IMG/VR virus record: IMGVR_UViG_2516143027_000009
Length of the DNA: 43,233 bases
Reading direction: 5' to 3' (one strand)
Source of the DNA: a virus
Taxonomy: Duplodnaviria; Heunggongvirae; Uroviricota; Caudoviricetes
A program made the translations under genes and the position numbers. Of this stretch, positions 6,702 through 41,970 are shown piece after piece. Below the pieces are notes generated by a model that was not told the origin of the DNA, ran no database searches, and saw only the letters and a list, made by a program, of their open reading frames with translations. Every line of letters starts with the position of its first letter. Position 1 is the first letter of the stretch.

Positions 6702-6959
6702 ATGCAGCAGTATCACTATCCACTGGAAGACGGATTTACCGAAAGGATTCACACGCCGGGAGGCGTCAGGTCACTGGTGGAGGGATCGCACTTGATGAAA
6801 TTACTCCGGGATCTCGATAAGGATGGATTTAATGTCGATGGCCCACTTGCCGAACTGACTGCACTGATTAACTACGTCACCAGCTCACAGATGTCTATGC
6901 AGGATCTGCAAACACATCTCGACTATTGTGCCGAACAATTACGAAAACAAACCCGGTAA
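6702..6959 (+). CDS. Small antirepressor-like protein: standalone copy of the module shared by three antirepressor fusions
   Basis: RBS GGAGAAG then ATG 6702; 85 aa; roughly 40% identity by eye to the C-terminal ~80 aa of the 8108, 9930 and 41299 gene products (shared PL..G...IH.P.GV..L.E.S.LM.LL..L..DG..V.G..AELT....Y......QTH..Y). Confidence 0.6.
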   Translation: MQQYHYPLEDGFTERIHTPGGVRSLVEGSHLMKLLRDLDKDGFNVDGPLAELTALINYVTSSQMSMQDLQTHLDYCAEQLRKQTR

Positions 6960-6981
6960 ATTTAAAGGCCGCAAGAGCGGC

Positions 6982-7710
6982 CTATCGTTTCGCTTTGTGC
7001 TCGTCCCAGCACGTTTTGCACCATGCCATTAAGCCGTCCGCATTTTGATTATTAGGGTAAAAGCTGGTCCGTTTTCTGCGGACATTACAAATTGGGCACC
7101 ACTTCATATGGCGTGTATTCTTTGGGCCATCGAGACACCTTGCACACCACTTAGTCAATCCATCTGGATTTTTTGACGATTTCCGGAATTTGTCATATGG
7201 AAGGTTTATTCTGCATCGCAAACACTGCTTGCGGCCACTTGAAACTCTGTTAGCTGATTCTTCTTTTGGCGGCGATACAGAAGGTATTCTTGCTGGCTCT
7301 GATACTGCCTGAGGTGCTTTTTTAGATGACTGAGACGATATGTCATCACCAGGGAATCTTCCATGATATGCCGGACGCGTTGACACTCCAGGTGGAAGCT
7401 CAGCTGTAAACGGCTTTGGCTGAATCAGTTGCCTCTCTTTTGCTAACTCCTGCTGTTTATAATATGTCTGGATTACCGCACTATCATAAGCAGGAGGTAC
7501 GGAAATATCAGGCGCGTTACCTCCAGTTTTTTGAAAATGAGTAGATGTGTGTTCTATCACCTGTGTACGACTAATCGTTACCTCCCCATCTTCGGTCTTT
7601 ATCGTTTTGTTCTGATTAACGACCGTACGATCAGAGATCTTAGTCTTGTTCTGGTTGATAACGTAAATAATCACCGCAACCACACCAACAACTATCCAGA
7701 AAACTTCCAT
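6982..7710 (-). CDS. Membrane-anchored protein with Pro-rich linker and tandem CxxC zinc-ribbon repeats
   Basis: N-terminal TM helix; two repeats C-x2-C...DGL..WC-x2-C; operator copy in its promoter region. Confidence 0.5.
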   Translation of the reverse strand: MEVFWIVVGVVAVIIYVINQNKTKISDRTVVNQNKTIKTEDGEVTISRTQVIEHTSTHFQKTGGNAPDISVPPAYDSAVIQTYYKQQELAKERQLIQPKPFTAELPPGVSTRPAYHGRFPGDDISSQSSKKAPQAVSEPARIPSVSPPKEESANRVSSGRKQCLRCRINLPYDKFRKSSKNPDGLTKWCARCLDGPKNTRHMKWCPICNVRRKRTSFYPNNQNADGLMAWCKTCWDEHKAKR

Positions 7711-7730
7711 TGCTTTTCCTCACAATAACA

Positions 7731-7745
7731 TTACCTTAAAGGTAA
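7731..7745. promoter_or_regulatory. Operator-like palindrome TTACC-TTAAA-GGTAA (copy 2)
   Basis: Sequence match to the operator consensus; divergent region between the 6982..7710 and 8108 genes. Confidence 0.5.
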
Positions 7746-7823
7746 TATCTTGCTTTCAGGTGATCAAGCGTTAAACGCAATCAACCAAATACGGTTGATT
7801 TTAATATTTCTTCGCGTTTATCA

Positions 7824-7838
7824 TTACCTTTGCGGTAA
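7824..7838. promoter_or_regulatory. Operator-like palindrome TTACC-TTTGC-GGTAA (copy 3)
   Basis: Sequence match to the operator consensus; upstream of the long leader of the 8108 gene. Confidence 0.5.
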
Positions 7839-7929
7839 ATTTACATCGCACTCCTCTTGTGCCATAGTAATCGGGCACTGGCAAAATCCAGTGCCGGGAT
7901 TGGCGTCCCGGGTTACTAAGTGGCGCATA

Positions 7930-7951
7930 CCACGCCAGACGTGGTTTTTTT
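7930..7951 (+). terminator. Intrinsic terminator inside the 5' leader of the BRO-domain antirepressor gene
   Basis: Hairpin CCACG-CCAGA-CGTGG followed by T7; about 150 nt upstream of the 8108 start codon. Confidence 0.45.
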
Positions 7952-8107
7952 ATGCGTTAAGCACAGCTATATCCGAATTATGGTGGGCTGGGCAGGGGTC
8001 CGAAAGGACGCCGGTACCACTTAGGCCGGTACGCCAACCTTGTCCAGTTCACCACCAGTAATTGGCGTTGCGGTGGTGATTAAAATCACTAAGTGGAGAT
8101 AACCACC

Positions 8108-8818
8108 ATGGCTAATGCTCAAACTTCCATCTTCAAATTTGAATCTGTTAACCCTATCCGTTCCATCATTATCGATGGCCAACCATGGTTTGTAGCCCAA
8201 GACGTTTGTAGTGCGCTGCGTATCCAAAACGTCACCCAAGCACTTGAAAAACTGGATGATGATGAAAGGTCTATGTTCAACATAGGGCATGAACATCGTG
8301 CAATTTTTGACAGCCGAGTAAAAGAGATCAACATCATCTCCGAGTCAGGCCTCTACACACTGATCCTCCGCTGCCGCGACGCAGTGACACCAGGCACTAT
8401 CCCCTACCGCTTTCGTAAATGGGTTACAGGTGAGGTTCTTCCTCAGATCCGCCGCACCGGAAGTTACATTAAAAACTCGCTCCCGCAGGAAGAACGCATA
8501 AAGATGGTTGCCGACCAGGTAGCCAACGCCACGGCGTCAGCAGTAATGCAGGCGATGAAGATAGAGAACAAAACCTACAGTGCCCCACTGAAGCCCGGCT
8601 ACCGTAGCCTGATTCATTCGCCGTCTGGTGTTCTCGGCCTGACGGAGAACTCACTGCTGATGAATCTGCTGAACCAGTTACAGGAAGACGGGCACGACGT
8701 ATCGGGCGCGGCGGCGGAACTGACCACCATGTTCTGCTACATCGTCGGTGTGAGCAAATGCCTGCGTGATATCCAGACCCACGCGGAGTACATCAACGAC
8801 AAGGCAGGGTTCTTCTGA
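8108..8818 (+). CDS. Antirepressor-like protein, N-terminal BRO-N domain fused to the shared C-terminal module
   Basis: N-terminal region typical of the BRO-N family (IFKFE...IDGQPWFVAQDVCSAL); RBS AAGTGGAG before ATG 8108; C-terminal 80 aa near-identical to the 9930 and 41299 products. Confidence 0.7.
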   Translation: MANAQTSIFKFESVNPIRSIIIDGQPWFVAQDVCSALRIQNVTQALEKLDDDERSMFNIGHEHRAIFDSRVKEINIISESGLYTLILRCRDAVTPGTIPYRFRKWVTGEVLPQIRRTGSYIKNSLPQEERIKMVADQVANATASAVMQAMKIENKTYSAPLKPGYRSLIHSPSGVLGLTENSLLMNLLNQLQEDGHDVSGAAAELTTMFCYIVGVSKCLRDIQTHAEYINDKAGFF

Positions 8819-8840
8819 CGGCGGCGGCACAGGGACGTGC
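8576..8840 (+). repeat. Copy A of a ~260-bp near-identical repeat (3' end of BRO gene plus about 20 bp after the stop)
   Basis: Near-identical to 41706..41970 (direct) and 9906..10160 (inverted); estimated over 95% identity by eye. Confidence 0.8.
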
Positions 8841-8889
8841 CTTTAAATAATTCTGTACAGATTGCAGACTGGGAGTGAATAGCGTACTA

Positions 8890-8904
8890 TTACCTCAAGG
8901 GTAA
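8890..8904. promoter_or_regulatory. Operator-like palindrome TTACC-TCAAG-GGTAA (copy 4)
   Basis: Sequence match; about 60 bp upstream of the 8964 gene. Confidence 0.5.
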
Positions 8905-8963
8905 GAAAGCATTTTTAATCTTCCCTTCAAAACGCGTCCTGTAGCCAAACATGGGAGGACGAA

Positions 8964-9596
8964 ATGAGAACAAATACAACAAGAAAAGCGATGCCATACA
9001 TTATCCCAGAAGCAGATTTCGATAGAAAACTGAACATGTCTGAGAAGAACACTAGTCACACCGAAAGCTACTTAGCGAAAGGTGTGGTTGATTTCGTTCT
9101 TCCGGGATTCACAACACCTTATGGTTATCGCCTTGTAAAATCTTGTAATGGCGATCATTACAGAATGATTACTACCAGCGATACTCCAGAAACGGTGTAT
9201 GCGGTTAAGTTAATCTTTCGGGAAGATATCGTCGAAGCCAAAAGAACATGTACGCAGATCATGGTATGGCGTACGCCTAATGTTATTCATGACCGTGCTG
9301 TTCATGGTTTGCCTCAGATTTTTTTTCAGTTCTTCCTAGAGCAATATGCGATCGTTGTATCTGATGAGCAACAAACAATCGATGGGAGAAGATTCTGGGA
9401 AAGAATGATTTCTTGGGCTATAAACACCCCGGGATATAATGTATACGTTTCAGATGGCTCTGAAGAAGATAGACCTCTTAGCTTCATGACATCATGGGAT
9501 GATTTCTATAGCCAGTGGGCTGATTTCTGTTGGGGCAGTGATAAAGATGTGCATACCCACAGACTACTGGTTATAAGCAAAGATAAACTGCATTAA
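8964..9596 (+). CDS. Hypothetical protein (accessory gene, no recognisable motif)
   Basis: Strong RBS GGGAGGA before ATG; 210 aa; lower GC than neighbours; own terminator; lies between the inverted repeat copies A and B. Confidence 0.6.
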   Translation: MRTNTTRKAMPYIIPEADFDRKLNMSEKNTSHTESYLAKGVVDFVLPGFTTPYGYRLVKSCNGDHYRMITTSDTPETVYAVKLIFREDIVEAKRTCTQIMVWRTPNVIHDRAVHGLPQIFFQFFLEQYAIVVSDEQQTIDGRRFWERMISWAINTPGYNVYVSDGSEEDRPLSFMTSWDDFYSQWADFCWGSDKDVHTHRLLVISKDKLH

Positions 9597-9600
9597 TAGA

Positions 9601-9622
9601 AGCCCGCAGCGCGGGCTTTTTT
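9601..9622 (+). terminator. Rho-independent terminator after the 8964..9596 gene
   Basis: Hairpin AGCCCGC-AGC-GCGGGCT followed by T6. Confidence 0.65.
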
Positions 9623-9694
9623 GTGGACGAAACAAAAGTCAGTGCTACACTCATTGACGCCACATTGAGGTGGCTTATAGATGGAAATTTCACA

Positions 9695-9856
9695 ATGAAA
9701 AAAGCATTTGCTGCACTGTTCGTTTTGTTGTCTCTGGTAGCTTCAACTCAGGCCTTTGCCGGTCGTTGTCAGCACGACAGCGATACTGCCGCTGACGGCT
9801 CCCGCTGCGGTGGGCGTTCTGCGGATTCCCGCCCGGGTGGCGGTGGCATTCGTTAA
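9695..9856 (+). CDS. Small secreted Cys/Gly-rich peptide (hypothetical)
   Basis: 53 aa from Met MKKAFAALFVLLSLVASTQAFA with a signal peptide; promoter-like TTGACG..TATAGA upstream; weak RBS. Confidence 0.35.
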   Translation: MKKAFAALFVLLSLVASTQAFAGRCQHDSDTAADGSRCGGRSADSRPGGGGIR

Positions 9857-9879
9857 AAACAAGGCCGCGAAAGCGGCCT
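9855..9879 (-). terminator. Rho-independent terminator of the ant transcript
   Basis: On the minus strand: hairpin AGGCCGC-TTTC-GCGGCCT followed by TGTTTTT. Confidence 0.55.
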
Positions 9880-9905
9880 GTGACATGTCACGCTAGTTTC
9901 GTTTT

Positions 9906-10160
9906 GCACGTCCCTGTGCCGCCGTTCTGTCAGAAGAACCCTGCCTTGTCGTTGATGTATTCCGCGTGCGTCTGGATATCACGCAGGCATTTGCTCACAC
10001 CAACGATGTAGCAGAACATGGTGGTCAGCTCCGCCGCCGCGCCCGATACATCGTGCCCGTCTTCCTGTAACTGGTTCAGCAGATTCATCAGCAGTGAGTT
10101 CTCCGTCAGGCCGAGAACACCCGACGGCGAATGAATCAGACTGCGGTAGCCTGGCTTCAA
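9906..10160 (-). repeat. Copy B (inverted) of the ~260-bp repeat
   Basis: Reverse complement matches copies A and C, including the post-stop segment. Confidence 0.8.
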
Positions 10161-10868
10161 TGGATAACCATAACATTTTGTCTGTGTTTTAATTGCCTCA
10201 CGAAGCGCATCTAACATCTTGACTGCCACTTCATCATTCTCTGATGCAGATCCAGCAGGGAGATACTCCCCTTCAAGCGGAACCCGAGCAACAAGAGACA
10301 ACGCTTCGGCAAATTGATCTTCACCAATTTCTTTGTACGAACAGCCAAAATGAGATTTCAGTGACGACCACATGGTGATCATCGCCTTAGCCTGTTTTTC
10401 TTTTGGCAGAGACTGACCGCGACTCATGACGAGTTGTTTAATGGCTTCCTGCTGTTCAGTTGTTATTTTACCCGGCAACGCCTTTTTAGCTTTGCGTGGG
10501 TTAACCACATGGCCTTTAGTCCAGTACTCGTAGAGCACATCGTCACACTCTTCCTGATACTGGATTACCTTGTCGCGGATTTCAGGGCGGACTTTGTTAG
10601 GGCTGATGCTGTTCAACCAAGCTGCCAATTTTCGTAAAGCCATACAAATCATGGCTTGCACCCCACCGGCAGAAGGTATGGTGATTTCCACCATACCCTT
10701 CGAGAAGCGTTGAGAAATCTTCTTATGTTGAGATTTCCAGTCTAGCCCCATTCCCTCAACGATAGGTTTCATTGGGGTATACGGTTCGCCGTTGTGATTG
10801 ACAACATAAAGCTCTGCGCCGTGGAATGGCACGTTGATAGTAGATACTGCTGTTGCTATACTCGTCAT
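9930..10868 (-). CDS. ant: Antirepressor Ant-like protein (P22 Ant N-terminal-like domain plus shared C-terminal module)
   Basis: N-terminal FHGAELYVVNHNGEPYTPMKPIVEGMGLDWKSQ resembles the P22 antirepressor N-domain (from memory); located downstream of an Arc-like gene with a divergent Mnt-like gene, as in P22 immI. Confidence 0.65.
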   Translation of the reverse strand: MTSIATAVSTINVPFHGAELYVVNHNGEPYTPMKPIVEGMGLDWKSQHKKISQRFSKGMVEITIPSAGGVQAMICMALRKLAAWLNSISPNKVRPEIRDKVIQYQEECDDVLYEYWTKGHVVNPRKAKKALPGKITTEQQEAIKQLVMSRGQSLPKEKQAKAMITMWSSLKSHFGCSYKEIGEDQFAEALSLVARVPLEGEYLPAGSASENDEVAVKMLDALREAIKTQTKCYGYPLKPGYRSLIHSPSGVLGLTENSLLMNLLNQLQEDGHDVSGAAAELTTMFCYIVGVSKCLRDIQTHAEYINDKAGFF

Positions 10869-10942
10869 GTCGTTAATTCCTATACGTAGTTTTACGATAC
10901 TGAAGCCCTGACGGTCTGGCCACCGTGGGGCTTCGCTGTTTT
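10869..10942 (+). ncRNA. Candidate sar-like antisense RNA (antisense to the ant RBS and arc 3' end)
   Basis: Plus-strand promoter TTGATA-17 bp-TATACT at 10834..10862 inside the ant 5' end; hairpin 10902..10934 followed by a T-rich tract gives a predicted transcript of about 70 nt. Confidence 0.4.
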
Positions 10943-11108
10943 ATGCCACGCTATTCTTCTCACCAGTGAGTCCATACACTTTCCTCAGCTGATAGATAAT
11001 CTCTGTATTGAACTTTCGGCATTCTTTTTCGCCATTTCTTTCAATAGCTAACTTCACATCGTCCGGAAAACGAACTCGTCGTTGACACATCTCTTTTGCT
11101 TTTTGCAT
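10941..11108 (-). CDS. arc: Arc-like ribbon-helix-helix repressor
   Basis: 55 aa from ATG 11108 with RBS AAGGAG; motif RVRFPDDVKLAIERNGEKECRKFNTEIIYQL matches the Arc/Mnt RHH pattern. Confidence 0.65.
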   Translation of the reverse strand: MQKAKEMCQRRVRFPDDVKLAIERNGEKECRKFNTEIIYQLRKVYGLTGEKNSVA

Positions 11109-11228
11109 TTCATATCTCCTTAGCCCCACCGTGGGGCAAAATAATTGTCACACCGTGCGTCATTGATGTCAAGCACACGGTGAGGCATACTTCAATCATT
11201 GCAAGTAACTCAATATTTGGTGAAGAAC

Positions 11229-11660
11229 ATGAGCAGAGAAGATCCACAACTAAGGATCAGACTTCCCGTCGAAGTAAAAGAAAAAATAGAAATTTCTGCA
11301 AAAGCCAATAAGCGATCAATGAACGCTGAAATAGTACAACGTCTTGACACCAGCTTTCTGAAAGATATTCATGAAGATGACGTAATTTCTGCTTATGAAG
11401 CAAAAATCATTGCAAACAATGCACGACATGAAATATCAAATATTATTTTCAAAAGAACCTTTAATGAAATTAATAAGAAAATAACACTTGGACATACAAG
11501 TTTTTATATAAACCTTAATGACCTTGAACTGGAATCACTTGCAGATAATGATTACCAGATCATCTTTGAAAAAACATTTAATAGGCTCAATGAACTAGGT
11601 TACATCATCTGTGAAAACTCATGGGATGCAGATGGTTTTGGAATTGAAATACCTGAATAG
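11229..11660 (+). CDS. mnt: Mnt-like ribbon-helix-helix repressor with a C-terminal extension
   Basis: N-terminus MSREDPQLRIRLPVEVKEKIEISAKANKRSMNAEIVQRL closely parallels P22 Mnt; divergent from arc-ant; AT-rich. Confidence 0.65.
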   Translation: MSREDPQLRIRLPVEVKEKIEISAKANKRSMNAEIVQRLDTSFLKDIHEDDVISAYEAKIIANNARHEISNIIFKRTFNEINKKITLGHTSFYINLNDLELESLADNDYQIIFEKTFNRLNELGYIICENSWDADGFGIEIPE

Positions 11661-11749
11661 GAAGAACAAAAGGCGTGTACATATTACACGTCTTTAATAC
11701 AATTGAAAAACGCCACATTACTGATGTATGTTACAACAAGGAGCGATAT

Positions 11750-12314
11750 TTTGAAAACCATATCTATATTAAAGGTTGCATTAGGCGTCGCTATTATTTT
11801 GACTCTCTCAATATTGTTTTATTTTTACCACAAACAAACTGCTATTGCTCTTGATAGTCACGCGGCAAACTCATTTTTCTCAGAGTACATAGTGCCGCTA
11901 TCAGGAAGCGGTATAACAAATAAATATACTGACTATGACATCAAATATGGAATTGATGATGGGGAGACTATTGTATTACATGTAATCATTAAAAACCTAA
12001 TGACAGTAAATAAAAATACAGACTTCAACGATAAAAATACAATACATCACAACAACAGCAAAACATTAATTTCTTATAGTAGCAACATCTATACGGATAA
12101 ATACCTAAAATACATATCAGAAGATACAATAAAAGAAACCCGCGAAAAGTTAAAAAACATATATTGTGCATCCGGCAGTTTTCACAAATTATCGCCGCAA
12201 GAGCGTTTATTCTACGAAGCAAGAAAACAACGTAAGTCAATAATATTACATTATTATGCTGATTCAGGGGAGACACTCATATTTAATATTGGGGTTTCCC
12301 CTGAATCATGCTAA
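11750..12314 (+). CDS. Single-pass membrane protein, candidate superinfection-exclusion protein (sieA-like position)
   Basis: AAGGAG RBS 7 nt before a TTG start (alternative starts ATG 11724 or TTG 11703); N-terminal TM helix; very AT-rich; lies between mnt and the ejection-protein genes. Confidence 0.5.
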
Positions 12315-12325
12315 AGGTGTTTAAC

Positions 12326-13438
12326 TCACCGCATCACCGGATCCACTTGGTTTATTAGTGGCGCAATCCAGAACAGGTTATTGCCGGGTATCAGGGTTCG
12401 GACATTATGCACAATACGATCACCGGCATCACCATTCAACACTCCTGAGGTCACATCAATGATGCTATCCGCAAGACCAAATGACGGTCCGAATAGAGAT
12501 CCTACGAATCCACGACTGGCATACCTGGACTGTGTGCCAGTGCCAAATAAAGCCCCCAGCCCAACAGCACCACCAGTCGCCTTTTCAGCCATGTTGTTAT
12601 ATTCCATCAATGGCCCAAGAATACCGGATCTATCTATACCCTCAAGCACCAGCTTCTCTGGTGACCAGTCAACATTTTTCCCTTTCGATGCTTCTTTAAG
12701 CGCATAGACCAGTGAGCCAAGAGCAATCTGAAATGCAGTGCCATAATAAAATTGCGCAGTTCCTTCCTGTAACCCACCAAGTAGCGCACGGTTGTATGAA
12801 GCCGTTGTGAATGATTTAAACTGAAATATCGTTCGCCCCATTGGAGTACTCGCCCATAAAGGTGTGTCACCAATACCGGGGGTGATGATAGTGTTATTAA
12901 CGTCTTTCAGAACCGCTGACTGGAATACTCCGGCAACGTACTGATCGTCCCATTTATCAAAGTTACCAATGTGCCATCCATCAATTACCTCACCATGTTT
13001 CTCGAACTCACTGCGAATACGCGCAGCCATATTGTCGTTGATACCGAGTTTTGCCATGCGACGTGCAGAAAACGCACCAGACAAAATACCGTCTGACGTG
13101 AGCATTCCGTTCATGGATTTGTTTATGTCATTAAATCGATCCATGAGTGTCAGCTTGCCGAAGGCATCAGTAATTCGCTCCATTCCTGCTTCGACTGCTG
13201 TTGTCCTGGAAGAACTGTCAACAAGATCACCAATTGCACGAGAACGTGAATGTAGTACAGTTTCCAATCCAATCCCCATCTTCAACATCTCTTCTTTGCT
13301 GGCCTTAAATGCCGGTGATTGGGATATCTGAGAAGCATAGCCTTTCATGGAGTTACGGAAACCATTAACCATAACCCCTCTGGCCAGATCTGGAATAGCT
13401 GATACTGTCATTCCACCGAGTTTGGTCGTGAAGTTCAC
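12326..13438 (-). CDS. Internal virion or ejection protein
   Basis: 370 aa, Gly/Ser-rich, last gene of the internal-protein cluster; position by analogy with T7-like gene order. Confidence 0.55.
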   Translation of the reverse strand: MNFTTKLGGMTVSAIPDLARGVMVNGFRNSMKGYASQISQSPAFKASKEEMLKMGIGLETVLHSRSRAIGDLVDSSSRTTAVEAGMERITDAFGKLTLMDRFNDINKSMNGMLTSDGILSGAFSARRMAKLGINDNMAARIRSEFEKHGEVIDGWHIGNFDKWDDQYVAGVFQSAVLKDVNNTIITPGIGDTPLWASTPMGRTIFQFKSFTTASYNRALLGGLQEGTAQFYYGTAFQIALGSLVYALKEASKGKNVDWSPEKLVLEGIDRSGILGPLMEYNNMAEKATGGAVGLGALFGTGTQSRYASRGFVGSLFGPSFGLADSIIDVTSGVLNGDAGDRIVHNVRTLIPGNNLFWIAPLINQVDPVMR

Positions 13439-27045: not shown

Positions 27046-27060
27046 TTACCTTTCAGGTAA
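27046..27060. promoter_or_regulatory. Operator-like palindrome TTACC-TTTCA-GGTAA (copy 5), next to a TTGACA hexamer
   Basis: Identical to copy 1; TTGACA at 27023..27028; lies between the portal operon start and the structured region and tRNA. Confidence 0.5.
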
Positions 27061-27382: not shown

Positions 27383-27459
27383 GTGGCATTAGCTCAGTTG
27401 GACAGAGCAACCGCCTTCTAAGCGGTTGGTCGCAGGTTCGAATCCTGCATGCCACGCCA
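27383..27459 (+). tRNA. tRNA-Arg (anticodon UCU), phage-encoded
   Basis: Cloverleaf by eye: acceptor GTGGCAT/ATGCCAC, D-arm GCTC-AGTTGGAC-AGAGC, anticodon stem ACCGC/GCGGT with loop CTTCTAA, T-arm GCAGG-TTCGAAT-CCTGC, discriminator G and encoded CCA. Confidence 0.85.
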
Positions 27460-29598: not shown

Positions 29599-30191
29599 TG
29601 ATTGCCATCCTGACGTTCTTTCAGTCTCTTCCTGGCTGCCGCTATGCGATCAGCAATTGTCACATTCACATTAACATCCAGGCGTTCTTTGAATGCATTG
29701 ACATCGACGTGCTTACCAATCAGTTCGAGGTTCTTCACCTTGTCAGGCCATTTAATTTTTTTGAGGATTGTCTCTATCGAATCCTCGTCCATGTTCATGA
29801 TGGTCGATGACAGATCAAAGCCGCTAAGCGTAGTGCGCCAGATTTTCGGCCACTCGCGGATTGGCTTAAGGCTCCCATCGTCGTTGAGGATATCAATCAC
29901 GTCCATCTGGTCGATCTCCACCAGGCGCATGAGAACGTAATCAGCACTGACGCGCATTCGTTTGTTGCGCTCCTCCATCAACTCGGCAATCCGTTTCTGA
30001 ATGCGTTCATCGCGCATCATGACACTGGCTTTAACTGCCGCTGTATTTGGGGAGAATCCTGCATTAATCGCAGCCTGAGTCTGATTTTCAGGCGTTTTGA
30101 TGTATGACTGGCAATAAGCCTCCTGCATTGCTGTTAGTGGCTTAAATTGCGTTGATTTGCGTTTATAGGTTTTAGGTTCAGCAGGCATCAT
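29595..30191 (-). CDS. terS: Terminase small subunit
   Basis: Region AMQEAYCQSYIKTPENQTQAAINAGFSPNTAAVKAS resembles the small terminase DNA-binding domain; start moved to internal Met pair with GGTGG RBS (the ORF extends to 30269). Confidence 0.65.
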   Translation of the reverse strand: MMPAEPKTYKRKSTQFKPLTAMQEAYCQSYIKTPENQTQAAINAGFSPNTAAVKASVMMRDERIQKRIAELMEERNKRMRVSADYVLMRLVEIDQMDVIDILNDDGSLKPIREWPKIWRTTLSGFDLSSTIMNMDEDSIETILKKIKWPDKVKNLELIGKHVDVNAFKERLDVNVNVTIADRIAAARKRLKERQDGNQ

Positions 30192-30196
30192 AACCA

Positions 30197-30230
30197 CCAT
30201 GGTAATAGTTACCGTTGTGGTAATAGTACC
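30197..30230. repeat. Tandem GGTAATAGT(T)ACC repeats directly upstream of terS
   Basis: CCATGGTAATAGTTACC-GTTGT-GGTAATAGTACCATG; half-sites related to the operator but in the opposite arrangement. Confidence 0.5.
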
Positions 30231-33026: not shown

Positions 33027-33103
33027 TTACCTCTGAGGTAATTAAAAACCACATAAGACACGAAATCAATAGAGTTTAGAATATTTTGTTACCCAACAGG
33101 TAA
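33027..33103. promoter_or_regulatory. Two operator-like palindromes (TTACC-TCTGA-GGTAA and TTACC-CAACA-GGTAA; copies 6 and 7)
   Basis: Sites at 33027..33041 and 33089..33103 between the P-like gene stop and the 32676..33023 gene start. Confidence 0.5.
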
Positions 33104-34990: not shown

Positions 34991-35005
34991 TTACCTTTGA
35001 GGTAC
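34991..35005. promoter_or_regulatory. Operator-like variant TTACC-TTTGA-GGTAC (copy 8)
   Basis: One mismatch in the right half-site; between the Cro-like gene and the next gene. Confidence 0.35.
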
Positions 35006-35039: not shown

Positions 35040-35060
35040 ACAGAGGGTTGTAGCTGGATA

Positions 35061-35327: not shown

Positions 35328-35390
35328 TCACCCATAAGGTAACAAAAATCAAGGATGGTTACCTATGAGGTGCATTTACCTGTTGGGTAA
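35328..35390. promoter_or_regulatory. OR-like region with three operator palindromes between Cro-like and repressor genes
   Basis: TCACC-CATAA-GGTAA (35328..35342), TTACC-TATGA-GGTGC (35359..35373), TTACC-TGTTG-GGTAA (35376..35390). Confidence 0.65.
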
Positions 35391-35445
35391 TATTGCTTTA
35401 AATTGAATCATCTACTGATTCATATATGAGGCGATTTTCCAGAAA

Positions 35446-36030
35446 ATGAAAAGTATCCAGGACGTCCGCAGGCAAAATCTCAACGACTTGATCGACCGTG
35501 AATTCAATGGTGTTCAGACGCGGATGGCAGAAAAACTTGGAACTCAGGCAAATCTGGTAAACCGCTGGGCTCTTGGCAAGAAGGTTATCGGCGACCAGGT
35601 TGCGCGAAAAATTGAAGCTGCCGCCAATAAACCCCGTAACTGGCTTGATATCGATCGCTCGCTTTCTCAGGAAGGTTTTCAGCCTGTCGGCCCAAGCGAC
35701 ATTGGTCAGCTGGCGGCTCACAACCTGGAACGCTGGATGAGCGAAAGCCGCGACCTTTCAACACAGGGAAAACTTCACCGCGCATCCGGCGTCGCCCAGG
35801 TGACAATCAGCCGCCTGTTAAACAATGAGGTCAGCGTTTCCATTTCCACCCTGGAGAATGTTGCATCCGCATTCGGGCGTCACGGATATGAACTACTGAT
35901 TCACCCGCACGACCCTGCGACTATCAACTATGACCGCTCACGCTACGCATTGTTACCCGAAACCGAGAAAGCAAAGATCGAAAGTTACATTGAATTTGTC
36001 ATCAACCAGAACGAAAAAAGCAAACAATAA
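35446..36030 (+). CDS. Immunity repressor (CI-like), dual HTH, no S24 peptidase domain
   Basis: N-terminal HTH (TQANLVNRWALGKKVIGDQVARKIEAAANKPRNWL) and a second HTH-like segment (ASGVAQVTISRLLNNEVSVSISTLENVASAFG); no Ser/Lys autocleavage motifs; flanked by operator clusters. Confidence 0.65.
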   Translation: MKSIQDVRRQNLNDLIDREFNGVQTRMAEKLGTQANLVNRWALGKKVIGDQVARKIEAAANKPRNWLDIDRSLSQEGFQPVGPSDIGQLAAHNLERWMSESRDLSTQGKLHRASGVAQVTISRLLNNEVSVSISTLENVASAFGRHGYELLIHPHDPATINYDRSRYALLPETEKAKIESYIEFVINQNEKSKQ

Positions 36031-36050
36031 AACTATATTTTTCAGTAAGT

Positions 36051-36075
36051 AAGCCGCCTCATGGCGGCTTTTTTA
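36051..36075 (+). terminator. Rho-independent terminator after the repressor gene
   Basis: Hairpin AAGCCGCC-TCAT-GGCGGCTT followed by T7. Confidence 0.65.
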
Positions 36076-36087
36076 TTGCCATCAAGA

Positions 36088-36164
36088 TTACCTTATGGGT
36101 AATTTTTTTAACTCATATCTATTGACATCAAACCAAATACGCATAATCATTACCTCAACGGTAA
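36088..36164. promoter_or_regulatory. OL/PL-like region: two operator palindromes flanking a TTGACA promoter
   Basis: TTACC-TTATG-GGTAA (36088..36102); TTGACA at 36122..36127 with CATAAT about 15 bp downstream; TTACC-TCAAC-GGTAA (36150..36164). Confidence 0.6.
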
Positions 36165-36182
36165 CAAGCCGAGGTAACAAGT

Positions 36183-36332
36183 TATGCAGTGGAAAATCAT
36201 CAACGGTTGGTACTGCGTTACTGCATGCGGATTCATGAGCTGGAAGTTCCGCACCTTACAGGAAGGCATCAAGTGGGCTTTCGTCAGCAAAGAAGCTCGC
36301 GATGTGGCAAACGATAACGAGATATGGGAGTA
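36183..36332 (+). CDS. Small hypothetical protein, first gene of the early-left operon
   Basis: RBS GAGG 8 nt before ATG; 49 aa; below the ORF-track length cutoff. Confidence 0.35.
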
Positions 36333-36341
36333 GGTTAGCAA

Positions 36342-37376
36342 ATGAGTGAATTATCAATCATCGAAATCACACCAGACATGGCACCAAGAATTTACGTTGA
36401 AAAAGGGCTGGAAAAGTTTCTCGAGCAGATCCGTGAAGGTGTTAATGAAGTGCCTGACATTAGCACAGACAAAGGCAGAAAGCGCATTGCATCTCTGGCT
36501 GCGAAGGTTTCAAGAAGTAAAACAGCGGTAGAAAAACCAGGACGTGATTATCTGAAACGCCTGAAAGAACAGCCGAAAGTAGTTGAAGCAGAGTTACGAC
36601 GCTTCGTAACCGAATGCGATCGGCTTCGTGATGAAGTACGCCGCCCACTCACCGAGTGGGAAAATGCTGAGAAATTACGCACTGAAGCACTGCAACAACG
36701 CCTGACAAATTTGCGAGCACTAGCTGACGTGATCGATCTCTCCGGAAACTACTTGCCATCATCTGATATTCAGGAACGAATTCAAGAGGCTAAATCAGTA
36801 GCACTTGATGAAAGTTGGCAGGAGTACGCAGCAGAAGCTGGAGTAGCCAAGGATTCAACCATCAAGAAACTGGAAGAATCACTCGCAGTAGCTCAAAAAC
36901 GCGAGCATGAAGCCGCTGAGCTGGAGCGACTTCGCAAAGAAGCGGAGGAAAAAGCGCGCATTGAGCGAGAAGAGAATATCCGACGGGAAGCTGCTGAACA
37001 GGCCAGGCTCGAAGCTGAACAAAAAGCGAAAGCTGAAATTGAGGCTGCGGCACGCCTGGCGGCGGAAGAAAAAGCACGTGCTGAAGTAGCAGAACGTCAG
37101 CGAATTGAAGCAGAGCAGCGTGCACGACGCGAAAAAGAAGAAGCCGTTGCCGAGGAACGCCGACGCCAAGAGGCGGCAGAAAAAGCCCGCCTTGACGAAC
37201 AGAAGCGTATCGCCGACGAAGAAGCGCGCCGAGCTGCAGATAAAGAGCATCGCCGTACCGTTAACCGCAGAGTAATCGCAGATCTGATAGCCCAAGGCAT
37301 TCACGAAGAATTCGCGCAGAAAGCAATGTTGGCTATCGCTGGCGGCAAAGTGCAGGACGCGTATATCAAATATTGA
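36342..37376 (+). CDS. Coiled-coil protein with Ala/Glu/Lys/Arg-rich TolA-like repeats
   Basis: 344 aa; globular N-terminal domain followed by a long EAxxKA-type repeat region. Confidence 0.55.
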   Translation: MSELSIIEITPDMAPRIYVEKGLEKFLEQIREGVNEVPDISTDKGRKRIASLAAKVSRSKTAVEKPGRDYLKRLKEQPKVVEAELRRFVTECDRLRDEVRRPLTEWENAEKLRTEALQQRLTNLRALADVIDLSGNYLPSSDIQERIQEAKSVALDESWQEYAAEAGVAKDSTIKKLEESLAVAQKREHEAAELERLRKEAEEKARIEREENIRREAAEQARLEAEQKAKAEIEAAARLAAEEKARAEVAERQRIEAEQRARREKEEAVAEERRRQEAAEKARLDEQKRIADEEARRAADKEHRRTVNRRVIADLIAQGIHEEFAQKAMLAIAGGKVQDAYIKY

Positions 37377-37377
37377 G

Positions 37378-37683
37378 GTGGGTATGAACGTTAATCAGCA
37401 GAAAAATCTTCAAAAAATCATGCTGGCATTCGACAAGGACTACCGCCTGTCAGAACAGCTATATGACCGACAAGTTGAACTGATCGATAGCATCCGGCTT
37501 CATCAACTGGCCTCAACTTTTGACGCTGTAACAGGCAAAGGAGTTCGCCAGGAAGTACTGGAGGCTGCTAAAGACAGCCCTGAGTTCGAAGAACTGATGG
37601 ATGCCTACCGGCGAGAGGCAATGGCAATTATCGCCCGCTGGGATCTGGCGGATCGGATTGATGGGCAGAGGGAAGCGGCATGA
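37378..37683 (+). CDS. Hypothetical protein
   Basis: 101 aa ORF, translationally coupled between the coiled-coil gene and the nuclease gene. Confidence 0.5.
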   Translation: MGMNVNQQKNLQKIMLAFDKDYRLSEQLYDRQVELIDSIRLHQLASTFDAVTGKGVRQEVLEAAKDSPEFEELMDAYRREAMAIIARWDLADRIDGQREAA

Positions 37684-38501
37684 AACCGGGAATTTATTTC
37701 GACATCAGCAATGAGGACTACCACGCCGGTGACGGCGTGAGTAAGTCGCAACTGGACATGGTTGCCAAGAATCCGGCGCTTCTTAAATGGGTTCAGGCAG
37801 CACCAGAAGACGAAGAGAAAAAGTCTGCACTGGATATGGGAACCGCATTGCACTGCCTGCTTCTGGAGCCTGGAGAGTTCGACAAACGCTTCATTGTTTC
37901 ACCGAAATTCGATCGTCGGACGAAACAAGGTAAAGCTGACGAAGAAGCATTTCTTCGTGATGTAGCGGATATGGGGATTACGGTACTTGATGCCGAGCAG
38001 TGGCGGAAACTGGAGCTGATGCGTGATAGCGCAATGGCTCACCCGGCGGCACGCTGGATGCTGGAAGCACCTGGTTACTGCGAAGCATCAATGTACTGGA
38101 ATGATGAAGAGACTGGTGAGTTGTGCCGCATTCGTCCAGACAAATGGCTGAACGAGCACAACGTGATCGTCGACGTGAAAAAGGTTGCAGATATGGACCG
38201 TTTTGCACGCCACATCGAGGAATTCCGCTACCACGTGCAGGACGCAATGTACCGCGAAGGCGCAATGAGGGTTACTGGTCAGCCGCATGGTTTTTTCTTT
38301 CTTGCCGTGAGCGAAAGCATTGATTGTGGTCGGTATCCGGTACGCGTGTTCGAGCTGGATGCGCCGGATGTCGATGCCGGGCACGCTCTGTTCCGCCGGG
38401 ATCTGAATACCTATCACGAATGCCGCATCAACGATGAGTGGGGCGGAGTGGAAATTATTAAACGCCCTGACTGGGCACGTAAACAGGATATGTACGTATG
38501 A
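37680..38501 (+). CDS. recE: RecE-like exonuclease (PD-(D/E)XK nuclease domain)
   Basis: 273 aa; resembles the C-terminal nuclease domain of exonuclease VIII; immediately upstream of a RecT-like gene with start/stop overlap. Confidence 0.6.
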   Translation: MKPGIYFDISNEDYHAGDGVSKSQLDMVAKNPALLKWVQAAPEDEEKKSALDMGTALHCLLLEPGEFDKRFIVSPKFDRRTKQGKADEEAFLRDVADMGITVLDAEQWRKLELMRDSAMAHPAARWMLEAPGYCEASMYWNDEETGELCRIRPDKWLNEHNVIVDVKKVADMDRFARHIEEFRYHVQDAMYREGAMRVTGQPHGFFFLAVSESIDCGRYPVRVFELDAPDVDAGHALFRRDLNTYHECRINDEWGGVEIIKRPDWARKQDMYV

Positions 38502-39379
38502 GCAATGATATCGCAATCACATCACAACCAGGCGCAACTGTAGGTACTGCTGCGGCAATCTTCAGCCCGGAGGGCATGAATCAACTGGTGCGTTTCGCGG
38601 AGTTGATGTCACAAAGCAAAGCGACTGTACCGAAACATCTTGAAGGCAAACCTGCCGATTGTCTGGCGGTGACCATGCAGGCGGCACAGTGGGGAATGAA
38701 CCCTTTCGCCGTGGCGCAGAAAACGCATGTGGTAAACGGAACGTTAGGCTACGAAGCACAGTTGGTAAACGCGGTCGTATCCTCTTCCAGCCTGCTAGCG
38801 ACACGCCTGAATTATCGCTGGAGCGGTGACTGGTCGAATGTTAACGGCAAAACAGATAAATCACCGAATCTGACGGTAACTGTGTCAGCAGTTCTTAAAG
38901 GAGAAGCAGAACCCCGTGAGCTTACCATCAGTATGGCGCAAGCCGGAGTGCGTAACTCTCCATTGTGGGAACAGGATCCGCGCCAGCAGCTTGCCTATCT
39001 TTGCACGAAACGATGGGCTCGCCTGCACGCTCCTGATGTGCTTCTCGGTGTTTACACCCCTGACGAATTACAGGAAACGGCACCGCGCGTTGAGCGAGAC
39101 ATTACTCCGCAAACGACTACTGCTGCGGGAATGAACAGTCTGATCAACGCTAAACCAGTGAAAAAGCATGATGAGCAAACGCGTAAAGCGGATAGCCGTG
39201 ATCCAGAAGAAATGCTGATGGCCTTTACCAGCGCAGCGATGAATTACAGCACTGTCTCCGAACTGGATAAGGCTTACAAATACATTGCACAAAAACTTTC
39301 AGATGATGACGAACTGCTGGCAAAAGCCACCGACGTTTACAGCGTTCGTCGGGAAGAATTAAACGAAACATCTATGTAA
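38498..39379 (+). CDS. recT: RecT-family single-strand annealing recombinase
   Basis: 293 aa; conserved RecT-like central region (QAAQWGMNPF...GYEAQLVN); paired with the nuclease gene. Confidence 0.7.
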   Translation: MSNDIAITSQPGATVGTAAAIFSPEGMNQLVRFAELMSQSKATVPKHLEGKPADCLAVTMQAAQWGMNPFAVAQKTHVVNGTLGYEAQLVNAVVSSSSLLATRLNYRWSGDWSNVNGKTDKSPNLTVTVSAVLKGEAEPRELTISMAQAGVRNSPLWEQDPRQQLAYLCTKRWARLHAPDVLLGVYTPDELQETAPRVERDITPQTTTAAGMNSLINAKPVKKHDEQTRKADSRDPEEMLMAFTSAAMNYSTVSELDKAYKYIAQKLSDDDELLAKATDVYSVRREELNETSM

Positions 39380-39428
39380 CCACCACCGCGGCGCCACACG
39401 CGCCGCACTGCAACCAAGAGAGGTATTT

Positions 39429-39677
39429 ATGAAAGGTGCATTAGGTAAGAAGGAACTCCTGGCGGTGGTGCCACTGTCATGGAGCACTATCGACCGTATG
39501 GAGCGCGCAGGGGAATTTCCTAAACGCTGGTATATCACTGACAAACGCTGCGCATGGAACCGTGACGAAGTTGAGCGTTGGCTTGATGAACGTCAGGCAG
39601 CAAGCCCGGCAGAGTTCCAGGGTAAAAAACCTCCTGTTCAGCAACGTGTATATCGTCCCGTGAGCAACGCTGCATGA
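39429..39677 (+). CDS. AlpA-family transcriptional regulator or excisionase-like protein
   Basis: 82 aa; HTH region LSWSTIDRMERAGEFPKRWYITDKRCAWNRDEVERWL typical of AlpA/Xis-like proteins. Confidence 0.65.
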   Translation: MKGALGKKELLAVVPLSWSTIDRMERAGEFPKRWYITDKRCAWNRDEVERWLDERQAASPAEFQGKKPPVQQRVYRPVSNAA

Positions 39678-39791
39678 GTGCGCTGCTAAGGCACTGGATC
39701 AAATGGTCAGGATGGTACTTATTCCTGGCCTCTGTTTCAGCATGGCTTTATCTGCTGGCATTAATTTTCAGAGAGGGTTGGATTAAGTGAG
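39675..39791 (+). CDS. Small hydrophobic membrane peptide (38 aa)
   Basis: ATGA overlap with the AlpA-like stop; single TM helix WYLFLASVSAWLYLLALIF; below the ORF-track cutoff. Confidence 0.3.
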
Positions 39792-40086
39792 AAAGTTAAG
39801 CCGACTTGAAAAATATCACATGAATAAGGTTTCAATGCGCAGTCCGTCAAAGATTGTCGCCGTTACTCCTGCGGCGATAGAGATCGAAAAACGCGCGATT
39901 GAAAGAGAGAAAAAAGGGCAGTTCCGCATTGCCGCTCACCTTTGGCTTCAGTGTATGGATGTTGCTTCTGGTGATGTTGAGCGTGCAAGGATCGCGGTTC
40001 GCAGGGACCAATGTATCACAAAAGGTAACGGCCTTCGCCGTGGAGACTATAGCGGTATAGGATGTTGCGGGGTGGTTTATGACTAA
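39787..40086 (+). CDS. Hypothetical protein
   Basis: 99 aa ORF (GTG start, alternative ATG at 39820) overlapping neighbours. Confidence 0.4.
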   Translation: MRKLSRLEKYHMNKVSMRSPSKIVAVTPAAIEIEKRAIEREKKGQFRIAAHLWLQCMDVASGDVERARIAVRRDQCITKGNGLRRGDYSGIGCCGVVYD

Positions 40087-40729
40087 GAAATACACACTAA
40101 TCTATGCAGATCCACCCTGGGTATACCGGGACAAAGCCGCAGATGGTAATCGCGGTGCCGGTTTTAAATATCCGGTTATGAGTGTGATGGATATCTGCCG
40201 CCTTCCTGTGTGGGATTTGGCCGATGAAAACTGTCTGTTGGCCATGTGGTGGGTGCCAACACAACCACTCGAAGCACTAAAAGTTGTTGAAGCCTGGGGG
40301 TTCCGTCTGATGACCATGAAGGGCTTCACGTGGATAAAATGTGGTAGTCGACAACCAGATAAACTGGTTATGGGTATGGGACACATGACTCGCGCCAATA
40401 GTGAAGATTGCCTGTTTGCAGTTAAGGGAAAACTACCTCCGCGCATTAATGCAGGGATCGTTCAGTCATTTACCGCACCGCGGCTTGAGCATTCAAGAAA
40501 ACCAGATGTCGTTCGTGAAAAACTTGTGCAATTGTTAGGCGATGTTTCTCGCATTGAACTGTTCGCCCGCCAGACGTCTCATGGCTTCGATGTTTGGGGT
40601 AATCAGTGCGAAGACCCGGCAGTGCAACTACACCCCGGATACGCGTTGGATATTGGCGGATTAACAAATGCATTCAGCAATGCTCCGCTGTCACCAACAG
40701 ACAACCAGGGACGGGAGCGTGCAGCATGA
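40079..40729 (+). CDS. MT-A70-family DNA N6-adenine methyltransferase
   Basis: Catalytic motif DPPW near the N-terminus (IYADPPWVY); 216 aa. Confidence 0.75.
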   Translation: MTKKYTLIYADPPWVYRDKAADGNRGAGFKYPVMSVMDICRLPVWDLADENCLLAMWWVPTQPLEALKVVEAWGFRLMTMKGFTWIKCGSRQPDKLVMGMGHMTRANSEDCLFAVKGKLPPRINAGIVQSFTAPRLEHSRKPDVVREKLVQLLGDVSRIELFARQTSHGFDVWGNQCEDPAVQLHPGYALDIGGLTNAFSNAPLSPTDNQGRERAA

Positions 40730-40974
40730 AGCAGATTATGGTTGCACACAACGGCGTCAGGTTTGAAGTCGTCATGGTTTTGACTAAGTTCCACAATGAT
40801 GAGGTATTGCACAGAAAAGAAACTGTAACTTACCGTTATAAACACCGCAGTTCAGCTGTTAGAAAATTACGGAAGATTGCGGAAGAACTAAAAAATGATC
40901 CTCATCGTGTTATTGAGGTAAAAGGCAACCCATATAAAATCAAAACTTCAGTGGAGCTAAGACATATGCAATAA
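40726..40974 (+). CDS. Hypothetical small basic protein
   Basis: ATGA overlap with the methyltransferase stop; 82 aa. Confidence 0.45.
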   Translation: MKQIMVAHNGVRFEVVMVLTKFHNDEVLHRKETVTYRYKHRSSAVRKLRKIAEELKNDPHRVIEVKGNPYKIKTSVELRHMQ

Positions 40975-41097
40975 AATCACGCCTGACGAATCGCGATTAT
41001 CTCGCTATTGGTATTGCAGAGATTGCTGGACTCAATGGCGCATGATTTGACAATGCCGCCAGAGCTATCGCATACTGACCGCACTAGAAAACAAACA

Positions 41098-41135
41098 GCG
41101 GTCATCCGCACCCGATAGCTTTGCGGCTTTTTTAT
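41098..41135 (+). terminator. Rho-independent terminator ending the early-left operon
   Basis: Hairpin around CCGCA...TGCGG followed by CTTTTTT. Confidence 0.5.
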
Positions 41136-41298
41136 GCCTGCAATCTGGCATAGTCACATCCGTACAAAGGTCGGGTGGAGAGGCGTAATACAACACCCGA
41201 AAGGGGAATATGCCCGGAGCTACTGTTTGTGCTCTAGTTGACACCCGATCACCAGCTACTAACTGGTTTTCGTAACTAAAAACAAACAGGAGGTCATC

Positions 41299-41949
41299 AT
41301 GACCAGTCAACTCATCCCCGTATTCAACGGCACTATATCCAACGAAACCGCTCTTCTCGTTAATGCCCGTGATTTACACACTTTCCTCGATGTGGGTAAG
41401 CGATTTGCTTCGTGGATTGTCGAACGAATTGCTGAATATGGTTTCGTTGAAAATCAAGACTTTATGATTATTTCCCAAGTTCGGGAAAAAATAGGCAGAG
41501 GCCGTCCTGCAAAAGACTACCACCTCACCCTCGATACAGCCAAAGAGCTGGCGATGGTCGAGCGTAATGAAAAAGGTCGTCAGGTACGACGCTACTTCAT
41601 TGAATGCGAGAAACGTTTAAGACAACAAGAAACAAAAGTGGAGAAGGTCTTGTCAGGCTTCATGCCCGCCATTATGGAGGCGATCAAGCTGGAAGACAAA
41701 AAAGAATACAGTGCCCCACTGAAGCCCGGCTACCGCAGCCTGATTCACTCGCCGTCTGGTGTTCTCGGCCTGACGGAGCACTCACTGCTGATGAATCTGC
41801 TGAACCAGTTACAGGACGACGGGCACGACGTATCGGGCGCGGCGGCGGAGCTGACCACCATGTTCTGCTACATCGTCGGTGTGAGCAAATGCCTGCGTGA
41901 TATCCAGACTCACGCGGAGTACATCAACGACAAGGCAGGGTTCTTCTGA
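41299..41949 (+). CDS. Antirepressor-like protein, AntA-type N-terminal domain fused to the shared C-terminal module
   Basis: RBS CAGGAGG; N-terminal segment NARDLHTFLDVGKRFASWIVERIAEYGFVENQDF resembles AntA/AntB-type domains (from memory); C-terminal 80 aa near-identical to the 8108 and 9930 products. Confidence 0.65.
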   Translation: MTSQLIPVFNGTISNETALLVNARDLHTFLDVGKRFASWIVERIAEYGFVENQDFMIISQVREKIGRGRPAKDYHLTLDTAKELAMVERNEKGRQVRRYFIECEKRLRQQETKVEKVLSGFMPAIMEAIKLEDKKEYSAPLKPGYRSLIHSPSGVLGLTEHSLLMNLLNQLQDDGHDVSGAAAELTTMFCYIVGVSKCLRDIQTHAEYINDKAGFF

Positions 41950-41970
41950 CAGAACGGCGGCACAGGGATG
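41706..41970 (+). repeat. Copy C of the ~260-bp repeat (direct with copy A)
   Basis: Near-identical DNA including about 20 bp after the stop codon. Confidence 0.8.

Follow-up and report, generated by a model that had tools for sequence, protein, structure and literature searches.

In this work, we analysed a 43,233-nucleotide stretch of viral DNA (IMG/VR record IMGVR_UViG_2516143027_000009; hereafter the window), in which one protein module of about 80 residues recurs in four genes, alone in a small gene beside the tailspike gene and as the C-terminal part of three larger genes, named A, B, and C. Judged from its sequence and its predicted fold, the module is the known, structurally solved antirepressor (Ant) domain of the SPC32H type. 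The explanation that best accounts for the data as a whole, and that we regard as probable, is that this Ant domain is used four times, once as a standalone antirepressor and three times in fused antirepressors under immI-type control, which act on the phage repressor Rep. The window as a whole is an epsilon15/phiV10-like (Uetakevirus-type) E. coli prophage; its positions 6500-11200 match TL-2011b at 95%, and they also match phiV10, HEMP4, and many E. coli chromosomes.

The standalone protein of 85 residues matched the 'Anti-repressor protein' chain of the Rep-Ant complex of Salmonella phage SPC32H (PDB 5D50, chain E) over residues 2-84 with E = 4.1e-47 in a phmmer search, and residues 1-75 of the fused module aligned with residues 5-79 of the 86 residues of the 5D50 Ant with E = 3.4e-14 in a PDB sequence search. 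All four proteins matched PHROG 450 (1e-35 to 9e-48), which is labelled 'unknown function'. The AlphaFold model of the fused module (predicted local distance difference test, pLDDT, 80.4) consists of three helices preceded by about 15 residues of low confidence, and its only confident Foldseek matches in the PDB were 5D50_G and 5D50_H (probability 1.00, template modelling score 0.63-0.73); all remaining PDB matches had E > 6. On the other hand, no Pfam or NCBIfam model matched the module, including KilAC, P22_AR_C, and ORF6C, and the sole ORF6C signal (E = 0.061) comes from the middle region of the gene B product and not from the module. The standalone protein and the fused module share 39-43% identity, with 18 invariant positions in common. 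An earlier reading of the bare sequence, the first-pass annotation, had proposed one module in four genes with the 6702 product as a diverged fourth copy, and both points are confirmed. It had assigned the module to no known family and had suggested a comparison with KilAC, the P22 Ant C-terminal domain, and ORF6C; the module matched none of these three and is instead a well-characterised domain whose structure, bound to its repressor, has been solved by crystallography, an outcome that the annotation itself had listed as speaking against its reading.

The SPC32H Ant-Rep antirepression system was reportedly described by Kim and Ryu in the Journal of Virology in 2013 and by Kim et al. in PNAS in 2016 (PDB 5D50 and 5D4Z), and in the latter study Ant is reported to bind first to the C-terminal domains of Rep and to capture the N-terminal domains afterwards. 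The SPC32H Ant has 86 residues; as a tetramer it captures two Rep dimers, disrupting the DNA-binding Rep tetramer (PMC9638917). The window encodes a homologous repressor (rep, 35446-36030, plus strand), which matched the 'Repressor' chain A of 5D50 over its full length with E = 3.5e-42 (phmmer). It is about 44% identical to the SPC32H Rep, while the standalone Ants share 88%. Two helix-turn-helix regions were found in it and no peptidase domain, so RecA-stimulated self-cleavage would not be expected and an antirepressor would be needed to inactivate it. We presume that this Rep is the target of all four Ant-domain proteins. The candidate Rep operator motif TTACC-N5-GGTAA has the same sequence as the binding sites labelled 'repressor' in the epsilon15 annotation. 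It was found 14 times in the window, where about 0.7 (0.71) would be expected, and none of 100 shuffled sequences reached 14. Four of these predicted sites flank rep (at 35328, 35376, 36088, and 36150), one lies between the tailspike gene and the standalone ant (6611-6625), where epsilon15 also has an annotated site, two lie upstream of gene A (7731-7745 and 7824-7838, both exact matches), and one lies between genes A and B (8890-8904). Additional predicted sites lie far from rep in the late and early regions (27046-27060, 30191-30223, 33027-33103, and 34991-35005). The scattering of the sites suggests that Rep directly controls several promoters, as the epsilon15 record also annotates.

The standalone ant gene (6702-6959, plus strand) is an orthologue of SPC32H ant (88% identity by tblastn), is divergent from the adjoining tailspike gene, and occupies the same position as SPC32H_020. 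A LexA (SOS) box, TACTGTATAAATATACAGTT, was found 20 bp upstream of it (6663-6682, with an exact CTGT-N8-ACAG at 6665-6680), and an equivalent box precedes the gene in nine of the 11 epsilon15-like genomes compared, SPC32H and epsilon15 included. No strict CTGT-N8-ACAG box was found near genes A, B, and C, so the LexA control that characterises SPC32H Ant is a feature of the standalone gene only. The system thus resembles that of SPC32H in its orthologous small gene, its position and LexA box, its homologous Rep with the same operator motif, and its fused modules, which are homologous to Ant in sequence and predicted fold. It differs in that SPC32H and epsilon15 have a single 86-residue Ant, whereas the window adds three paralogous C-terminal copies, which stand behind RNA or Arc/Mnt-type controls instead of a LexA box. 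The standalone gene is present in all 11 genomes, and PAS61 and BUCT554 are without a fused copy; it is therefore the core antirepressor, and the fused genes are accessory.

Gene A (8108-8818, plus strand, 236 residues) joins a BRO-N domain (Pfam Bro-N, 9.6e-20) to the module (8576-8815). Two candidate RNAs lie upstream of it on the plus strand, one of the isrK family at 7875-7951 (Rfam RF01394, 67.7 bits against a gathering threshold of 50) and a C4-family antisense/immunity RNA at 7976-8059, directly before the gene start (RF01695, 66 bits against 45). Both RNAs precede every BRO-N::module gene that was examined (TL-2011b, Tyrion, HEMP4, and Kp4865-1). The two operator-type sites farther upstream probably repress gene A. 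Full-length relatives of gene A were found in 18 phage records, all epsilon15-like, and its N-terminal part occurs in 618 records, among them N15 gp30. Experimental information comes from phage vB_EcoP_ZX5, which has the standalone gene and one fused copy where the window has three. Its ORF4 has the same architecture as gene A, with 81.5% identity overall and a module 100% identical to copy A, and its Rep is 99.5% identical to that of the window. Overexpression of ORF4, a Bro-N 'anti-repressor', decreased lysogens from 10^9 to 10^6, about 1000-fold, and lowered repressor transcripts by 75%; the study reported the N-terminal Bro domain only and made no connection between the C-terminus and SPC32H Ant (PMC9782041). 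This overexpression test supports antirepressor activity of a gene A-type protein. In phiV10 (L006, 19551-20230), the BRO-N::module gene is split into PhiV10p23 and p22 by a frameshift within the module, and phiV10 is therefore probably without a functional fused copy.

Gene B (9930-10868, minus strand, 312 residues) consists of a P22_AR_N domain (Pfam, 5.9e-45), a middle region, and the module (9933-10172). By BLASTP it is 89% identical to the CUS-3 Ant over residues 1-222, near-identical up to about residue 205, and then without similarity. The CUS-3 protein has P22_AR_C (5e-29) where gene B has the Ant module, and Pfam did not match P22_AR_C in the gene B product. Because P22_AR_C is missing and the match to CUS-3 Ant breaks off somewhere between residues 205 and 222 or so, gene B is a chimera and not a full member of the P22 immI type. 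A match to the sar family of antisense RNAs (10870-10937, plus strand; Rfam RF00262) covers the start of gene B and the arc-ant spacer over the full length of the model, with 44.8 bits against a gathering threshold of 43. The match is marginal in score and its context fits; the same match adjoins TL-2011b gp42, a P22_AR_N::module gene. Upstream of gene B lies a putative Arc-like small repressor gene (10941-11129, minus strand; PHROG 228 'Arc-like repressor', 1.8e-05), whose TL-2011b equivalent, gp41, is annotated 'Arc-like repressor'. Divergent from this arc-ant pair is a predicted Mnt-like ribbon-helix-helix regulator gene (11199-11660, plus strand; Pfam Arc domain, 1.2e-14); its equivalent in strain SCU-387 is annotated 'Arc family DNA-binding protein', and CUS-3 has its mnt genes in the same position. 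The region therefore shares with the P22/CUS-3 immI system (mnt, arc, sar, and ant) the P22_AR_N domain and middle region, the Arc-like gene, the divergent Mnt-like gene, and sar. It differs from that system in carrying an SPC32H-type Ant module in place of P22_AR_C and in a resident repressor of the epsilon15 type, not the P22 C2 type.

Gene C (41299-41949, plus strand, 216 residues) adjoins the integrase gene and joins an AntA domain (Pfam, 8.2e-28) to the module (41707-41946, with the repeat tail reaching 41972). Its leader holds a candidate RNA of the sRNA-Xcc1 family (41169-41258, plus strand; Rfam RF02221, 64.8 bits against 53), and the AntA::module gene of HEMP4 is likewise preceded by sRNA-Xcc1. 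Residues 1-141 are 68% identical to the VT2-Sakai Ant, whose C-terminus is different. Full-length relatives were found in two phage records, both epsilon15-like, whereas AntA-type N-domains occur in 686 phage records. AlpA-family and PerC-family regulator genes (39429-40086, plus strand) belong to the early-left operon that precedes gene C, an arrangement also seen in phiV10 and epsilon15, and read-through from this Rep-controlled operon could also reach gene C.

In P22, sar pairs with the ant mRNA and blocks ant translation, in P1/P7 ant translation is blocked by c4, and in Gifsy-1 IsrK controls the antirepressor gene anrP (PMC12197685). Because sar, c4, and IsrK all control antirepressor genes there, the three fused genes would by analogy be immI-type secondary-immunity cassettes. 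In SPC32H and PAS61, which have no fused genes, the isrK, C4, sar, and sRNA-Xcc1 RNAs are absent. Gene A resembles the P1/P7 immI (an operator-controlled promoter, c4, icd, and ant) and the Gifsy-1 isrK-orf45-anrP region in having C4 and isrK directly upstream with operators farther upstream, and gene C resembles P1/P7 in an AntA domain behind a structured leader RNA. The window differs from both systems in that no icd/orf45-like leader ORF (open reading frame) was identified and in its C-terminal domain, which is not KilAC/ANT; Pfam found no ANT/KilAC domain in the products of genes A, B, and C. Moreover, the gene C leader scores as sRNA-Xcc1 and not as C4, so the C4 feature is confined to gene A. 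A broader likeness is to the Bro network of domain-swapping phage and satellite proteins (Iyer, Koonin and Aravind, 2002; PMC10111431), in which C4/isrK immunity RNAs were noted (PMC10111431) and one C-terminal unit combines with various N-domains, often with such RNAs. The C-terminal partner in the window is not among the ten Pfam families listed there (PMC10111431), and for this partner both the structure and the target are known.

The distribution of the module was followed in phage records, protein databases, and complete genomes. Among 50,697 phage records, 34 carry the module, and all 34 also carry a Rep homologue. A word-indexed homologue search returned 18 short proteins and missed the fusions, so an exhaustive profile search was used instead; across 1.84 billion representative proteins it found the module in only 61 clusters, most of them standalone proteins of 80-130 residues and a few of them fusions with AntA, Bro-N, Phage_pRha, or ORF6N. 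Module DNA of at least 94% identity occurs at 582 sites in 469 of the 5,426 complete E. coli genomes, with a maximum of three per genome, behind at least five annotated types of N-domain (BRO-N, 'Ant', AntA, ORF6N, and P22_AR_N). The module is thus joined to Bro-N, AntA, P22_AR_N, Phage_pRha, and ORF6N, and those N-parts occur elsewhere with other C-termini. Across genomes, module copies cluster by the lineage of their N-domain, and chimeric copies were found exactly at mapped crossovers only. Concerted evolution within a genome was ruled out by this grouping. In some genomes the AntA::module gene occupies slot A beside the standalone ant and not slot C, and in other strains slot C by the integrase carries a differently annotated 'phage antirepressor Ant' N-domain; N-domains therefore move between slots (MN187550.1, phiv142-3, 5424-6077; NZ_CP122634.1; NZ_CP157151.1). 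Two further observations concern the lineage of the module. In complete Klebsiella and Raoultella genomes (P0006 and P0009; L005 and L008) a fused-type module occurs as a free protein of 95 residues that begins at the conserved 'MPAILEAMK' helix. The central motif of the fused-type module, DGHDVSGAAAEL, is shared with the standalone Ant of Klebsiella, whereas the standalone Ant of E. coli and Salmonella has DGFNVDGPLAEL in its place, and this sharing hints at the origin of the fused lineage.

At the DNA level, the module forms three repeats of about 265 nucleotides, copies A, B, and C at the 3' ends of the respective genes, which are 94-97.5% identical and terminate genes with BRO-N, P22_AR_N, and AntA N-domains. 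A repeat finder returned the direct pair 8563-8819/41694-41950 (96%) and the inverted pairs 8550-8819/9929-10198 (91%) and 9907-10163/41716-41972 (95%), and this similarity is far beyond chance. The first-pass annotation had described four open reading frames and three DNA copies, all of which are present at coordinates correct to within a few bases; its estimate that identity passes the stop codon by about 20 bp comes to about 25 nucleotides in an alignment anchored at the stop codons. In the same alignment, identity begins exactly at the first codon of the module (Tyr), 240 nucleotides before the end of the stop codon, and it continues beyond the stop across a small hairpin, with an indel of 2-3 nucleotides in copy A. 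This tail is common to all three copies (8819-8843, plus strand, in copy A; 9907-9929 in copy B; and 41950-41972 in copy C) and includes the hairpin, GGCACAGGGACGTGCC, which is conserved among them as GGCACAGGGA(C/T)GTGCC. The hairpin does not look like an intrinsic terminator because no T-run follows it. Over 243 nucleotides, A and C differ at six positions, A and B at 15, and B and C at 16, and after codon 4 the 10 differences between A and B are all synonymous. Since the changes beyond codon 4 are synonymous, selection keeps the copies identical at the protein level, and they are more than fresh duplicates. The recent recombinational shuffling that had been proposed is supported as to the shuffling, by swaps of N-parts and C-termini and by strain SCU-387 (below), while 'recent' was overstated for copy B, which departs from A and C at about 15 positions, mostly through synonymous changes, and belongs to the lineages that follow the N-domain.

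Rearrangements at the repeats were sought with synthetic junction sequences in the 5,426 complete E. coli genomes. The junction expected from an A x C deletion was absent from all of them, so the loss of about 33 kb that had been suggested between these direct copies finds no example in this set. The first A-B junction, in which BRO-N and the module are followed by the sequence downstream of B, was found in nine genomes, for example N21 and UTME-9. A simple flip was ruled out in these two strains by breakpoint mapping; a block of promoter, BRO-N, and module is inverted at slot B and adjoins a flipped, truncated P22_AR_N fragment. The reciprocal A x B junction was found in one genome, that of strain SCU-387, in which window positions 8585-10163 are inverted at 98.8% identity between flanks colinear with the window, with both breakpoints inside the modules. 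SCU-387 therefore carries a simple homologous A x B inversion, exactly the one that the first-pass annotation had considered possible, and rearranged junctions, whose absence it had named as counting against it, do exist. Recombination at the module is thus real but occasional. The segment between the inverted copies (8844-9906), inverted in SCU-387, contains the operator-type site at 8890-8904 mentioned above, a 210-residue open reading frame (8964-9596, plus strand; PHROG 1349), and a gene for a predicted membrane-associated protein of 77 residues with a hydrophobic, signal-peptide-like N-terminal stretch (9623-9856, plus strand; PHROG 3117/14503). In TL-2011b, UTME-9, and other strains the 210-residue gene is replaced by a YafO-family toxin gene, which makes this a variable accessory slot.

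We hypothesize that lysogeny in this prophage is maintained by the SPC32H-type Rep, which an antirepressor would have to inactivate. The standalone ant, repressed by LexA, would couple induction to DNA damage. The three accessory genes would carry a paralogous version of Ant, about 40% identical to the standalone protein, on the C-terminal side of Bro-network N-domains, and most likely the module determines the target (Rep) and the front end the timing: the 5' regulator and the N-domain would decide when the protein is made, and the C-terminal module would decide which repressor is attacked. The fused modules would accordingly bind the Rep of this prophage. The fused proteins may thus be Rep antirepressors independent of the SOS response; they could, for instance, be expressed by a genome that enters a Rep-immune cell, or they may act as a feed-forward once Rep begins to fail. 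The shared module DNA would at the same time provide homology for recombination, giving swaps of N-domains between slots and the A-B inversion in at least one strain. Several points weigh against this explanation. Identity between the fused module and the Ant of the solved complex is only about 40%, and the ZX5 test overexpressed the whole protein, with its domains not separated. The overall identities of Ant and Rep do not co-vary, so specificity is not readable from sequence; the standalone Ants of E. coli and Salmonella phages are 84-88% identical while their Reps share 43-45%. The fused genes are dispensable, as PAS61 and BUCT554 combine a phiV10-type Rep with zero fused copies, and the sar match exceeds its threshold by just 1.8 bits.

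The same data were weighed under other explanations. The fused modules might be aimed at the Rep variants of related prophages, in cross-talk or anti-immunity against competitors, while the standalone Ant handles the resident Rep. The deep divergence of the standalone and fused paralogues (about 40% identity) would suit this, as would the two deep groups of Rep, about 45% identical in the 11 genomes compared, and immI-type controls suit a role in superinfection; in Salmonella, antirepressors acting in trans are known to induce other prophages (PMC3121763; summarised in PMC7380047). However, ZX5 ORF4 acted on ZX5 itself, whose Rep is nearly that of the window, and in E. coli and Enterobacter the fused type accompanies a phiV10-type Rep, in Klebsiella one of the SPC32H type, so that no exclusive pairing with a foreign Rep is seen, and we consider this alternative unlikely. 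It is more improbable still that the module mainly serves as an oligomerisation (tetramerisation) domain of DNA-binding Bro-type regulators, with an active N-domain and no contact with Rep. A generic oligomerisation domain would not be expected to be confined to genomes with an epsilon15-type Rep, yet every module-bearing record has one; moreover, the same N-parts carry unrelated C-termini elsewhere, such as P22_AR_C, and the strict amino-acid conservation in three copies fits a specific common partner. This alternative draws on the tetrameric state of SPC32H Ant (PMC9638917), on the view that Bro-network N-domains are DNA-interactive, with one relative being a repressor (PMC10111431), and on the unseparated domains of the ZX5 experiment.

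Two remaining alternatives seem to us to have very little probability. In one, the fused proteins would modulate the standalone Ant by co-assembly through the homologous module, as a brake or an amplifier of SOS induction. Homology with 18 invariant positions and the tetrameric action of Ant would permit such mixed assemblies, but their formation is uncertain at about 40% identity, nothing in the data indicates hetero-oligomers, and ZX5 ORF4 alone drove the phage towards lysis. The other alternative, which we find scarcely credible, takes the inverted copies A and B as a programmed inversion switch that moves the inner two-gene cassette between antirepressor operons. Against it, the complete reciprocal junction was found in just the one genome out of 5,426, the list of open reading frames of the region shows neither an invertase gene nor a recombinase site, and the repeats are coding sequence under purifying selection, which resembles occasional homologous recombination, even though both A-B orientations occur naturally and in either one the inner genes are co-directional with the upstream antirepressor gene.

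The standalone gene is the part already known, and the new part is the fused form, in which an SPC32H-type Ant would provide the C-terminal effector of antirepressors that have Bro-network N-domains and immI-type control. Many phage 'antirepressors' are named solely from a Bro-N, AntA, P22_AR_N, Rha, or ORF6N domain, whereas the C-terminal partner in the window has a crystal structure with its repressor and works free-standing at 86 residues. The splice relative to CUS-3, in which the module replaces P22_AR_C in a phage of a different repressor family, makes the idea of target versus timing directly testable. A more far-reaching view, which we offer as a tentative possibility and would not ourselves favour at present, is that one repressor-binding 'warhead' is wired to four independent inputs (LexA; Rep operators with isrK/C4; Mnt/Arc/sar; and sRNA-Xcc1) as a multi-input hub for induction and anti-immunity, and that in the Bro network generally the C-terminal domain recognises the repressor while the N-domain and the 5' riboregulator form a portable control cassette. 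On this view, replacing P22_AR_C by the Ant module would redirect an immI system to another repressor family, and the DNA shared by the three modules, which selection keeps identical in protein, would drive the swapping. Identifying the module as Ant also assigns a function to PHROG 450, points to a gap in Pfam, which has no model for this domain, and explains the near-identical 265-nucleotide prophage repeats present one to three times in about 9% of complete E. coli genomes. The gain is better annotation and a clean model locus and not a new principle.

Some neighbouring genes deserve mention. A PADLOC search for defence systems matched neither the fused proteins nor their neighbours. An open reading frame between the standalone ant and gene A (6982-7710, minus strand, 242 residues) encodes a protein whose N-terminal helix is hydrophobic and in which two Cys-rich motifs match zinc fingers of the endonuclease VII/Stc1 type; it belongs to PHROG 6762 ('unknown function'), had zero PADLOC matches, and is not present in SPC32H or epsilon15. 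A tRNA-Arg(TCT) lies in the packaging/head region (27383-27459, plus strand), and SPC32H has a tRNA-Arg annotated at the same relative place. The tailspike gene (3387-6506, minus strand) encodes 1039 residues, and its counterparts in matching genomes are annotated in RefSeq as 'endosialidase catalytic beta-propeller domain-containing protein', that is, as K1-capsule specific; it adjoins the same ant locus in strain N21, a cerebrospinal fluid isolate, and in avian pathogenic E. coli (APEC) O2:K1:H7.

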